DNA of 33,523 bases from an uncultured Bacilli bacterium (GTDB lineage Bacteria > Bacillota_I > Bacilli_A > RF39 > UBA660). Of the stretch, positions 29,680-33,523 are shown in pieces. The notes under the pieces are model-generated. The model was not told the origin of the DNA. It did no database searches and saw only the letters and a program-made list of their open reading frames with translations. The stretch is from the NCBI GenBank assembly GCA_947626095.1, contig CANQQV010000016.1:1-33523 (forward strand). The letters run 5' to 3'. A program made the position numbers and the translations under genes. Within the stretch, counting starts at the first letter, position 1. Every line of letters begins with the position of its first letter.

Positions 29680-30665
29680 TTTAGATTATCTTTAAAAAAC
29701 TTTTCTATTTTATCAAATGGAATTATATCTTTATTATCATATAAATCAGTATGAACAGCATTAGGAATTATCATTAGTTCTTTATTATCAGTATAATTAC
29801 TATTTGTGGTCATATTTTTATAAGCATCTTTACTAAAATAACAAGAATGAGCTTTTTCGCCATGAATCATTAGAACAGCACTTCTAATTTCATTACTATA
29901 TTGTAAAATTGGTTAATTTATAAAAGACATACATCCTATTTTATTCCATCCACCATTAGAATTTAAACTTCTTTTATGATATGCTCTACCTTTATAATAT
30001 TCACTATAATCTTTAACATAGAATGGTGCATCATCTGGTACAGGTAAATCTAAGCATCCTCCACCAAGTTCATAACTACCATTTTCATAATCAACTATTC
30101 TTTGGGCATTAAGATTTTTTTTCATTCCATATCTGGCATTTTCATTATCACTCTCATCAAAATAACCATTAGCATTAACTCTTGACATATCATACATAGT
30201 AGAAATAACTGAGGCTTTAATTCTTGTATCAAGAGCTGCAACATTTAAGGCCATTCCACCCCAACCACAAATACCAACAATACCAATCCTTTCAGGATCT
30301 ACATTAGGAAGTGTTGATAGGAAGTCGATAGATGCTTGATAATCTTCGGTATTTATATCAGGACTAGCCATATATCTTGGTGTTCCTCCTGATTCTCCAG
30401 TAAATGATGGATCAAAGGCGATTGTTAAAAATCCTCTTTCAGCAAGTTCTTGGGCATATAAGCCACTTGCTTGTTCTTTTACTGCTCCAAAAGGTCCACA
30501 TACACTAATTGCTGCTAATTTACCTTCATAATTTTTAGGCACATACATATCAGCAACAAGTGTTATTCCATAACGATTATGAAAAGTTACTTTCTTATGA
30601 TTAACCTTATCACTTTTAGGGAATGTTTTATCCCATTCTTCAACTAAATTTAATTCTTCTTTCAT
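29676..30665 (-). pseudogene. Alpha/beta hydrolase (YcjY-like, Cys nucleophile) interrupted by an in-frame TAA
   Basis: ORFs 29913-30665 and 29676-29870 share one frame and read SFIN*PILQYSNEIRSAVLMIHGEKAHS. GAVKEQ, FDPSFTGESGG and GICGWGG lie upstream of the stop; HTDLYD lies downstream. Confidence 0.85.
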
Positions 30666-31111
30666 TTTTCATCTTTCCTTTCATTTTTGGGTATTTTATC
30701 TATTTCTAAAGTAGGAAGAGTTGATGTAATATTTTCAACTATTTTTTCAGTTCCTGCTTTAATAGCTGTTTTATAATACCATTCCTTATATTCTAATTCT
30801 TTATAACAATCTTTTAATTTTTTTAATTCTTTTTCTATAGCTTGCTTCTGCTCTAAAATCATATTATATCTTTCTTTTAAAGTACTATCTCCCTCTTCTG
30901 CTAAGTCGACATACTCTTTAATTTTAGAAATAGGCATATTAATATTTTTCAAACAATTTAAAACTCTTAACCATTTAAAGTCTTTATCTTCAAAAACTCT
31001 TCGTCCATTAACTTTTTTAACATTTGGAAGTAAGCCCATTGAATCATAATATCGTAAAGTTGATGGTGCAACATTCATCATATCAGCAACTTCTTTAATA
31101 GAATATGACAT
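30662..31111 (-). CDS. MerR family regulator, AdhR/NmlR-like
   Basis: YSIKEVA, STLRYYD..GLLP and W...LNCLK with the conserved Cys. Confidence 0.92.
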   Translation of the reverse strand: MSYSIKEVADMMNVAPSTLRYYDSMGLLPNVKKVNGRRVFEDKDFKWLRVLNCLKNINMPISKIKEYVDLAEEGDSTLKERYNMILEQKQAIEKELKKLKDCYKELEYKEWYYKTAIKAGTEKIVENITSTLPTLEIDKIPKNERKDEK

Positions 31112-31214: not shown

Positions 31215-31934
31215 TTATTTTAAAATTGATACTAAATAATTAGAAAATTCTTGTTCTGTTATATTAGAAGTTTCAATATCAAAATAATAACCATTATAAC
31301 TGAATGTAGTATAAAAACTATTTTCATATTTATATATTTTTAAATCTATATTATTTATTGTTGTTATTTTACTATCTTCTTCACTAAAATAATAATCTCT
31401 TAATGGTTCTTGTTCTTCTGAATATTTAACTTCAATACTTCTTTCATTACCATCAGTAATAAGCATTATATAATTAGCTACTGTATCATATTCTTTACTA
31501 TCTTTATCTTTTTTAACATAAACAATATAATTTTTAGTTTGAGTTAAATCACGAGGAATAATAAACCATTCTTCATTTTGATTTTCATTTACTTTAAAAG
31601 GATAAGGTATGTTAACACCACTAACAGTTTTGACATCAGCATCTAATTTTGTCATACCTACTTTTGCTAAATCATTGATATTTAAAGTTATATTGTTTTC
31701 TTTATCGATATATGGTTTATTTTCAAGTAAGTCATTATTATCATTTTTATAATTTAAAAAGATAATTCCACTTATAACAACTATTAAACATATTGGTACT
31801 AAAGACCATTTTAATAAATTATTTTCCTTTTTCATTTTGTCTTCCTTCTCTATTTTCTTAATTATTTCATTATAATTATTTGTTGGGTTAATATCTTGTT
31901 CTATTGCTTTTTTTAATTTTTCTTTGTTAGTCAT
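31215..31934 (-). CDS. Putative single-pass anti-sigma factor
   Basis: Short cytoplasmic N-terminus, a TM helix and an extracellular domain. ATG 31934 overlaps the ECF sigma 3' end. Confidence 0.65.
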   Translation of the reverse strand: MTNKEKLKKAIEQDINPTNNYNEIIKKIEKEDKMKKENNLLKWSLVPICLIVVISGIIFLNYKNDNNDLLENKPYIDKENNITLNINDLAKVGMTKLDADVKTVSGVNIPYPFKVNENQNEEWFIIPRDLTQTKNYIVYVKKDKDSKEYDTVANYIMLITDGNERSIEVKYSEEQEPLRDYYFSEEDSKITTINNIDLKIYKYENSFYTTFSYNGYYFDIETSNITEQEFSNYLVSILK

Positions 31935-32478
31935 TAGAAATACCCCCATCTCCAAATTTTTTTTGCAATTCTTTTAATGTCCTATAAATTAAATTTTTTA
32001 TATATGATTCACTTACATTTAATTCTTTAGCTATTTCTTTAATAGATAACTCTAGTTTATAATACAAATAAAATACTTTAGGAATATCTTGATTCTTTTT
32101 ACTTTTAATAAATTGCCATATAGTAAGCCAATTATCTTTTTGAATAACTATATTTTCAATATTAATTTTATCTTCTAAAAGATCAATTAACTCTATATCT
32201 TTATCATTTTTTTCAAAGATAGATATAGTCTTTATTTTTTGTAGTAAAGTATAATGTTTTTTGATTTTGTTATTAGCAATACCTATAAGATAGCTTTTAA
32301 TGTTATCATTTGATAATTCTTTTTTATTTATAATGTTCCATAATTCTAAATATGTTTCTTGAATAATATCATTAGCATCATTTATATTATGACATTTTAT
32401 AATTACATATTTAAGTAAATCTAAATAAGTTTTATCATATATATTATTAAATTTATATAGGTAAGTATCGCTAGCCAT
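31927..32478 (-). CDS. ECF-type RNA polymerase sigma-70 factor
   Basis: DANDIIQETYL (region 2) and LSIKEIAKELNVSESYIK (region 4). ATG 32478 follows AGGTGA; the ORF track gives GTG 32487. Confidence 0.88.
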   Translation of the reverse strand: MASDTYLYKFNNIYDKTYLDLLKYVIIKCHNINDANDIIQETYLELWNIINKKELSNDNIKSYLIGIANNKIKKHYTLLQKIKTISIFEKNDKDIELIDLLEDKINIENIVIQKDNWLTIWQFIKSKKNQDIPKVFYLYYKLELSIKEIAKELNVSESYIKNLIYRTLKELQKKFGDGGISND

Positions 32479-32548
32479 ATTCATCACCTACAATACAATT
32501 ATCCCAACTTTTTTTGAAAAAGTTTCAAAAATTTATTTTTAGTCATAT

Positions 32549-32576
32549 AAAAAGCAAATCTCATGTGGAGTTTGCT
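32549..32576 (-). terminator. Intrinsic terminator after the DUF2798-like gene
   Basis: Minus strand AGCAAACTC-CACAT-GAGATTTGCT followed by TTTT. Confidence 0.7.
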
Positions 32577-32594
32577 CATACAAATTGTATTTTT

Positions 32595-33134
32595 TTATTT
32601 TCTTTTAAAGATTAATTTAAATGTTTGTCTAACAAAAGGTTGAATAAAGAATAATTGAGAGAAATAAGCAAATGGGAAATTAAAACAAATCAATTTTAAC
32701 CAATTAGCTAACAAAGTAAATATATTAAATCCCATATAATAAGGATAATATAAAAACGCTGCTATAAAACTCATTACAGGTACCATTATTCCTACTGTAG
32801 CACATATTACTGCTGTTTCAAAATGAACTGGATCAGTTTTTTTGATATTAAAGTTTTTACATGCCATTTTAAATGAAAAAGGTTGACCTATTAACATTTC
32901 TGCTAAATAGGCAAAACAAAATTCTACTAAAACAACTGCCCATATAGGTAAATAACGACCAAACATATAAACTCCACCAAGTTTATTAATAGCATTTAGT
33001 ACACTATTAGCACCTGTTAAATTCATAAGTGTTGTTCCATTTACAACATATAAACTATAAAAGACATATGCATGAACGGTAATAATTACAGTAATTAAAG
33101 CAAACAATGCTCTTTCTTTTTTATTTGTAGGCAT
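32595..33134 (-). CDS. Four-TM membrane protein, DUF2798-like
   Basis: MPTNKKE..LF start, four hydrophobic helices, W....NFPFAYFSQLFFIQPFVR; strong AAGGAGGTG RBS. Confidence 0.7.
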   Translation of the reverse strand: MPTNKKERALFALITVIITVHAYVFYSLYVVNGTTLMNLTGANSVLNAINKLGGVYMFGRYLPIWAVVLVEFCFAYLAEMLIGQPFSFKMACKNFNIKKTDPVHFETAVICATVGIMVPVMSFIAAFLYYPYYMGFNIFTLLANWLKLICFNFPFAYFSQLFFIQPFVRQTFKLIFKRK

Positions 33135-33247
33135 TTAATTCACCTCCTTTTTGGCAATAAAAAACACATATGGCACTATCACATTTTCTAAATACATTTC
33201 TGTAATCAGATTTATGTGCATAGCACTACATGTGTCAAATGTATTAC
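33135..33247 (-). promoter_or_regulatory. Structured 5' leader (attenuator/riboswitch candidate)
   Basis: Long imperfect hairpin (33235-33214 with 33184-33164) plus a U tract; alternative 9-bp pairing 33245-33237 with 33199-33191; TG-T-TATATT extended -10 at 33262-33254. Confidence 0.6.
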
Positions 33248-33352
33248 TTGTTAAATATAACATAATTTAAATTTTTTTGTAAGTATTTTTATTCTTACAA
33301 ATTACTATTTATTTGACTCATACAAATTGTAATTTGCACTTATTATATTTGT

Positions 33353-33523
33353 TTAATCCACATTTACACCTTTCTTGAATATTTTTATATCTATGAAATA
33401 ATAGATACCAATTAAAATGATATATAAGCATATTCCTAAAACTAATGCTGTTTTTACAATATCAACTGTAAGTGTATTACTTATATTTGAATTAAATAAA
33501 GCCATAATACTTGGATTAAATAA
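33353..33523 (-). CDS. 3' end of a membrane protein (possibly an ABC permease), truncated by the window edge
   Basis: Manual translation LFNPSIMALFNSNISNTLTVDIVKTALVLGICLYIILIGIYYFIDIKIFKKGVNVD*. Confidence 0.7.
   Translation of the reverse strand, partial: LFNPSIMALFNSNISNTLTVDIVKTALVLGICLYIILIGIYYFIDIKIFKKGVNVD

Follow-up and report, generated by a model that had tools for sequence, protein, structure and literature searches.

The window analyzed here is a stretch of 33,523 nucleotides that comprises one whole contig of a 1.6-Mb, 34-contig genome. On its minus strand lie, in order of transcription, a small open-ended ORF that ends at 33353, a promoter-like site, a leader of approximately 110 nt downstream of that site, and the gene for a DUF2798-like membrane protein. 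The elements that frame the leader are as follows.

33254..33283, minus strand: promoter-like site, with a -35 element CTTACA (33283-33278), an 18-nt spacer and a TG-extended -10 element TATATT (33262-33254)
33141..33149, minus strand: ribosome-binding site AAGGAGGTG, separated by 6 nt from the ATG at 33134, read from the sequence
32595..33134, minus strand: the regulated gene, an ORF for a DUF2798-like membrane protein of 179 aa, modelled with four long helices
32549..32575, minus strand: the gene's own terminator-like hairpin with a T run, closing a one-gene unit, read from the sequence

A promoter scan was not above chance by itself (7 sites, against 10.4 expected in shuffles), and the same -35/-10 pair is kept upstream of close homologs of the DUF2798-like gene. 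Judging from these promoter boxes, a transcript start near 33247 is plausible. Two further groups of genes follow on this strand. Downstream of the DUF2798-like gene are a sigma-70 region 2/4 gene (31927-32487) and an overlapping 246-aa ORF that has no Pfam match (31215-31955), and a MerR-family gene (30662-31111) overlaps by 4 bases the start of an alpha/beta-hydrolase gene of S15/DLH-like type (29913-30665), the two of which look like a small regulator-enzyme pair.

Two competing folds of the leader

Folding of the segment 33135-33250 gave a minimum free energy (MFE) of -33.8 kcal/mol (z = -5.09), and none of 200 shuffled sequences was as stable; this MFE structure of the leader is the OFF hairpin. 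Two alternative structures, an intrinsic-terminator fold (OFF) and an aptamer-like three-way junction (ON), draw on the following elements.

33159..33236, minus strand: intrinsic-terminator fold, with 5' arm 33236-33214, 3' arm 33184-33164 and U run 33164-33159
33190..33246, minus strand: aptamer-like three-way junction of about 57 nt, the full extent of the covariance-model match
33237..33245, minus strand: P1 5' strand, pairing with 33199-33191 in nine Watson-Crick pairs with no mismatch
33227..33236, minus strand: J1/2, a nearly invariant junction strand (consensus ACGACACAYGU) that is also the base of the terminator 5' arm
33216..33226, minus strand: P2 hairpin, GUGC, a 3-nt loop and GCAC, with 33226-33223 pairing with 33219-33216
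33210..33215, minus strand: J2/3, a conserved junction strand, AUAAAU in the window and GUAAAU in most members
33200..33209, minus strand: P3 hairpin, CUG, a 4-nt loop and CAG, with 33209-33207 pairing with 33202-33200
33191..33199, minus strand: P1 3' strand, pairing with 33245-33237

The terminator stem is built from runs of 9, 7 and 5 bp that include G-U pairs and are interrupted by one A/C mismatch and one bulged G, and this interrupted 21-bp stem runs into UUUUUU at 33164-33159, so that a stable hairpin is joined directly to a U run in the manner of an intrinsic terminator. A simple terminator scanner, whose rule asks for a loop of 3-8 nt and at least three G-C pairs, listed no site in the window; it missed the OFF hairpin because a long AU/GU-rich stem with inner structure breaks its loop and G-C rule. 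Folding of growing transcripts showed that the junction is the MFE structure (-9.6 kcal/mol) of the nascent RNA 33248-33190, and that it is overtaken once the 3' arm has been made, the terminator reaching -28.9 kcal/mol at transcript end 33164. In the window the terminator fold is approximately 20-24 kcal/mol more stable than the junction fold, and the two exclude one another through the shared J1/2 strand.

A previous sequence-only reading of this stretch had described the extended -10 together with the other leader elements, and all of them lie where it had placed them on the minus strand. The OFF pairing that it had proposed was borne out by the fold of 33236/33235-33214 with 33184-33164 and by the stability of the segment relative to its shuffles. 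Its ON fold was upheld for P1, P2 and P3, which together form the MFE structure of the nascent RNA, but not for a fourth P3 pair, U33210-A33199, which reuses a base of P1.

Distribution and covariation of the RNA family

In order to find related leaders, an exact pattern drawn from the leader core was scanned against a collection holding one genome per species, and at least 120 loci were found to carry the motif. Among the matches listed, most come from gut and rumen metagenome-assembled genomes (MAGs) of Clostridia, Lachnospiraceae, Oscillospiraceae and Bacilli, with a few isolates; four are Eggerthellaceae or Adlercreutzia records, and one is a MAG labelled Prevotella. A covariance model was built from 14 seeds and rebuilt from 100 matches, and the junction of the window scored 51.3 bits (E 8e-12) against model R1 and 63.4 bits (E 5e-16) against model R2. 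With model R2 the genome of the window contains a single copy, and the RNA was found in 14 of 150 other genomes from the family of a Pseudobutyrivibrio isolate, which is of Lachnospiraceae type, in 6 of 150 other Clostridia genomes sampled from the class of the same isolate, and in 2 of 149 other genomes of the phylum sample to which the window itself belongs. The RNA is common, at about one in ten genomes of the Lachnospiraceae-type family sample, and concentrated in animal-gut and rumen genomes.

Within the family to which the genome of the window belongs, 15 of 201 genomes, its own included, encode homologs of the window protein. Six of these homologs are 84-93% identical to the window protein and share the leader in their upstream regions, and a 42%-identical homolog (L011, in genome G069) shares the leader core. 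The L011 leader matches model positions 9-51 only, its promoter leaving no room for P1. As a separate observation, the L011 gene contains one in-frame TGA, and with its P1-less leader it may be either a decaying copy or part of a genome that reads TGA as sense.

In the 100-sequence model alignment, 87.7% of cells were paired, compared to 71.3% in shuffles, and the covariation score was 0.371, a value that none of 500 shuffles reached, compared to 0.123 in these, although an alignment made by the model is fitted to it and leans towards its own structure, and kinship among the sequences means that shuffle counts overstate support. Controls with slid partners scored at most 0.127 on the same alignment. 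All six modelled P1 pairs covary, each with every kind of compensatory change. The second pair of P2 is UA in 56 sequences, CG in 30, AU in 10, UG in 2 and GC in 1, with none of 99 unpaired. Covariation was seen in one of the four P2 pairs in the pattern-selected set, where three P2 pairs and the P3 5' strand had been fixed by the search pattern and are invariant by construction, and in all four in the unbiased set. The latter consists of 17 sequences found by the model alone, among which 10 of the 13 pairs have undergone compensatory change, the four P2 pairs being among these.

The P3 3' strand was not part of the search pattern. The middle pair of P3 is UG in 85 and UA in 14 sequences of the pattern-selected set, and UG in 16 and UA in 1 of the model-found sequences, with no compensatory (double) change in either alignment; most members have CGG in the 3' strand and hence a conserved U-G wobble where the window has U-A. 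The window copy additionally departs from the majority in an A for G at the start of J2/3 and in a P1 that reaches the core, and the positions at which it departs, the CAG for CGG of P3 among them, vary independently in other members.

P1 was also examined without an alignment. Complementarity of the flanks next to the core was 9.27, compared to 6.95 +/- 0.37 with shuffled partners (reached in 0 of 200), and remained at 8.14, compared to 6.32 +/- 0.42 (0 of 300), for 81 distinct flanks from which the window's own type had been dropped. When the best helix was instead sought without constraint across wide flanks, no signal emerged (13.06, compared to 13.33 for controls). P1 is imperfect, with 67-72% of positions paired, often only 4-6 bp, and a distance from the core that varies. 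The junction strands (ACGACACAYGU, GUAAAU and the P3 region) are nearly invariant; the columns of J1/2 are invariant in the 14-sequence seed, and this strand is kept with few changes in the 17 model-found sequences. The P2 loop has 3, 4 or 5 nt across the seed alignment. An A/U-rich box noticed by eye on the 5' side was not confirmed in a fixed register.

The overlap between junction and terminator extends to the family. When MFE structures were computed for segments that begin at the conserved 5' strand and extend to the nearest suitable T run, a terminator that uses the conserved J1/2 strand and ends in a T run was found in 110 of 126 distinct sequences. The only variable base of this strand faces the 3' arm as U-A in 63, C-G in 24 and U-G in 18 of these, while 5 leave it without a partner. 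Where model-found sequences have an A at this base, the 3' arm usually supplies a matching U, and at one locus (L141) a C-to-G change is matched as well. The spacing between the arms ranges from 55 to 167 nt. The 16 sequences in which no simple terminator was found include cut loci, members in which a second hairpin and T run can be seen by eye, and four actinobacterial copies. Furthermore, the 5' junction strand is conserved far beyond the need of a terminator arm, so that the aptamer-like junction and the expression platform share a strand in the classical manner. The proposal that a three-way junction competes with a terminator, originally read from this single leader, is supported by the comparison of loci, in which P1 and P2 covary across the family and the terminator arm covaries at the variable base of J1/2.

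Regulated genes and probable spread of the cassette

Examination of the genes that follow the motif in the 120 matches listed identified 63 DUF2798-like, 33 MATE and 8 MFS genes, along with 13 loci that were other or unparsed and 3 that were cut; several of the 13 turn out to be DUF2798-like or MFS genes that are truncated or had been missed. According to Pfam and NCBIfam, the transporters are MatE and MFS_1 of the DHA2/LmrB type. The 17 unbiased loci consist of 13 DUF2798-like, 2 MATE, 1 sigma-70-like and 1 decayed fusion, and the 7 class-sample loci of 5 DUF2798-like, 1 cut and 1 unparsed. A structured, covarying, aptamer-like RNA therefore recurs in the 5' leaders of functionally related genes, with DUF2798 counted among three unrelated exporter families. 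In a single case (L156), a sigma-70-like gene and a further ORF come after the motif and the DUF2798 gene is absent.

The assignment of the window protein itself to Pfam DUF2798 falls below the gathering cutoff (18.5 bits, E 0.0022, against 23.5 bits). Of 38 relatives in the alignment, which have 39-91% identity to the window protein, 20 reach the family at E <= 0.01 (best 49.4 bits, E 4.9e-13); no other family matched, and an NCBIfam search returned no family. The AlphaFold2 model of the window protein (pLDDT 89.5) consists of four long helices, and three acidic residues (E71, E79 and E106) together with R169 are invariant or nearly so in the protein alignment. Foldseek against the PDB returned no match to the model at E <= 0.001, and a wide structural search with VIA-align yielded generic helical matches that are uninformative (best Z 7.1, rmsd 4.8, 130 aligned). 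The genes that accompany it under the same RNA suggest that the DUF2798-like protein is an exporter. That no substrate could be named for the downstream gene had been remarked from the sequence; across the family, the regulated genes are uncharacterized or generic exporters.

The promoter, leader and gene form a block of approximately 0.7 kb that shares 76-92% nucleotide identity with blocks in other genera while the flanks are unrelated, which suggests that this cassette has spread horizontally. A search of plasmids and phages for the cassette gave no match. An exact 15-base direct repeat (19 bases at 95%) at 33317-33331 and 32575-32589 on the minus strand brackets the block, and homology to the other genera begins and ends near its two copies. 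The repeat was not found around 13 homologous blocks; chance or the scar of an insertion may account for it.

A candidate riboswitch and its alternatives

We consider it likely that the leader belongs to a widespread, conserved cis-regulatory RNA, most plausibly a transcriptional ON riboswitch. We infer both ligand binding and the ON direction, the latter because a ligand that holds the junction must block the terminator with which it shares the 5' arm. In the proposed mechanism, transcription would start near 33247 and the first ~57 nt would form the P1-P2-P3 three-way junction, the near-invariant strands of which presumably form the ligand pocket. The 3' arm of the terminator (33184-33164) would be made about 10 nt after the junction. 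Without ligand, the more stable terminator hairpin would then form by strand invasion and RNA polymerase would stop at 33164-33159; with ligand, the junction would be held, the 3' arm would be left partnerless, and the DUF2798-like gene would be transcribed.

The same fold could instead be bound by a protein or another trans factor (an antiterminator, a ribosomal or other RNA-binding protein, an sRNA or a tRNA) that controls attenuation. The structural and covariation data show a functional RNA fold and are silent on what binds it, and protein-dependent attenuators also overlap terminators. We nevertheless regard this as unlikely, since the motif occurs in lineages as distant as Clostridia, small-genome Bacilli and Eggerthellaceae, since a ~0.7-kb cassette between unrelated flanks would need the factor to be present in every recipient, and since a multi-stem, near-invariant junction ahead of non-homologous exporters is the usual signature of a metabolite riboswitch.

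It is quite improbable that the leader is a constitutive, ligand-free element, whether one that senses temperature, stabilizes the RNA or, as a fixed attenuator, keeps the level of a toxic membrane protein low. The excess stability of the terminator fold does mean that, on thermodynamics alone, the leader would mostly terminate; a fixed attenuator, however, needs neither P1 nor invariant strands, whereas here P1 covaries and the strands are conserved across phyla, and the RNA is common to three non-homologous exporter families. A DNA operator for a repressor, for example an efflux regulator of the MerR or TetR type, would account for a long imperfect palindrome between promoter and gene, and the window does contain a MerR-family gene at a distance of 2 kb. 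We hold this to be very improbable, given that the arms keep their pairing through G-U wobbles, which in DNA would be C/A (18 of 110 sequences have U-G at the variable base, and the window has several such pairs), and such pairs argue for RNA rather than DNA; that a T run follows the 3' arm and the arm spacing varies; and that the conserved part is one arm plus the P2 and P3 hairpins and not a symmetric site. Finally, ribosome stalling on a leader peptide, for which a 42-codon ORF (33135-33263) that spans the leader could be invoked, can practically be set aside, as the start codon of this ORF precedes the inferred transcript start and lacks a ribosome-binding site, indels among members are not multiples of three (the P2 loop alone being 3, 4 or 5 nt), and the changes in P1 are compensatory and not synonymous.

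Returning to the ON riboswitch, we asked how it relates to RNAs already described. At gathering thresholds, the 4227 models of Rfam 15 gave no match in the whole window and none in 20 motif loci. At E <= 10 the leader gave chance matches only, of 4.7-19 bits against thresholds of 47 or more, and at E <= 1 eight further motif loci gave no match except an unrelated lysine riboswitch in L140 (2271-2449, 113.6 bits), which lies downstream of a DUF2798-like gene and serves as a positive control for the scan. The earlier impression that the leader is not a purine, preQ1, guanidine, fluoride, SAM, FMN, TPP or T-box element therefore agrees with the Rfam results for window and motif loci alike. In its layout the RNA resembles purine-type riboswitches (RF00167 and relatives), in which the aptamer is likewise a two-hairpin junction closed by P1, with its 3' side in competition with a terminator. 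It differs in that no Rfam purine model matched even at E <= 10, in that J1/2 is long (~11-13 nt) and is itself the terminator arm, and in that P2 and P3, at 4 and 3 bp, are too short for the loop-loop docking of purine aptamers.

The closest likeness in regulatory layout is to guanidine-IV (the mepA motif) and Gd4v, which the accessible parts of two reports describe as transcriptional ON switches whose aptamer lies partly inside or overlapping an intrinsic terminator, and of which Gd4v is enriched in gut metagenomes and still orphan (bioRxiv 10.1101/2020.10.21.349134; PMC9788692). As far as those parts go, both stand ahead of MATE-type exporters, as do 33 of the 120 listed loci here. The same texts give them two hairpins joined by a loop-loop pseudoknot (bioRxiv 10.1101/2020.10.21.349134; PMC9788692), unlike the present leader, which is a three-way junction closed by P1, and the Gd4v alignment rows available to us carry loop words of the CGCCGGA and UUAGGCC type, none of which is present in the window leader (33135-33262). 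The gene partners named in the available text of PMC9788692 (SugE, PnuC, transaminase and GNAT) also differ from the DUF2798-like and DHA2 MFS genes found here; in the loci examined, no SugE/Gdx, PnuC, GNAT or transaminase gene was seen immediately downstream of the motif. Identity with guanidine-IV/Gd4v was rejected on a comparison by eye with those alignment rows and descriptions, the pseudoknotted two-hairpin plan and the conserved words both being absent.

The logic proposed here, in which a toxic solute turns on its own exporter, is shared with the guanidine-I, -II and -III and fluoride riboswitches, for which the accessible text of the same two reports treats toxic-ion ON control as established (bioRxiv 10.1101/2020.10.21.349134; PMC9788692). 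The present RNA is distinguished from these by the lack of an Rfam match and by its genes, as no SugE/Gdx, CrcB or carboxylase gene was seen downstream in the loci examined. Rare FMN-riboswitch variants, as presented in the available part of PMC6298564, likewise control efflux-type transporters in Clostridia, but are recognizable derivatives of the FMN aptamer, whereas the RNA here has no match in Rfam.

In our search of open-access papers and bioRxiv preprints, with subscription journals, motif repositories (ZWD) and supplements outside its scope, no description of the motif was found; its words, searched as text in the open-access literature, returned primers only. Nothing in that literature linked DUF2798 to a riboswitch, the papers on DUF2798 being unrelated, and the accessible part of a 50-genome ncRNA survey (PMC11109978) contained nothing relevant on MATE, efflux, MFS, multidrug or mepA. 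The RNA is accordingly put forward as a candidate new orphan riboswitch class, set apart from Rfam 15 and from guanidine-IV/Gd4v.

Since the regulated genes are DUF2798-like, MATE and DHA2 MFS, the ligand of such a riboswitch would probably be a toxic small molecule that the regulated proteins export, and most likely an organic cation. Our fullest proposal, which is tentative and which we could well see fail, is that this is an undescribed, widespread riboswitch class sensing a toxic gut metabolite not yet recognized as such, probably a small organic cation, and that DUF2798 proteins are its dedicated four-helix exporters. If this is true, DUF2798 would be a new family of small exporters with a role comparable to that of Gdx/SugE, and the MATE and DHA2 pumps would share its substrate. 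Orphan riboswitches have repeatedly exposed hidden chemistry; guanidine, fluoride and others, according to the available portions of the two reports, were recognized as biologically relevant only after riboswitches had been decoded (bioRxiv 10.1101/2020.10.21.349134; PMC9788692). Three unrelated exporter families are under the control of the present RNA, among them DUF2798, which is without known function or solved structural relative. Identifying the ligand would name a stress compound of the gut ecosystem and assign a function to DUF2798. It would also make available a natural ON switch of compact size (~57 nt) for Gram-positive anaerobes.

Several copies of the motif are decayed or unusual (L160, L032, L088, L143 and L144). 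The L160 copy lies mid-gene, fused to the coding sequence on which it sits. In three of these five loci the motif is followed by an ORF of 75-82 aa that corresponds to a later part of the protein only, and in L144, from an isolate genome, it faces a convergent gene and has no gene of its own. A different leader precedes two DUF2798-like genes of approximately 30% identity (L016 and L018), in which a hairpin and T run come directly after the promoter; the 9-nt loop of the hairpin is conserved, and its stem shows two compensatory changes. This type of leader was present in 2 of 401 genomes of the family and, among 8 matches in metagenomes, in a single genuine one, the other 7 being chance matches in unrelated sequence; it could represent a second regulatory RNA for the DUF2798-like gene family.
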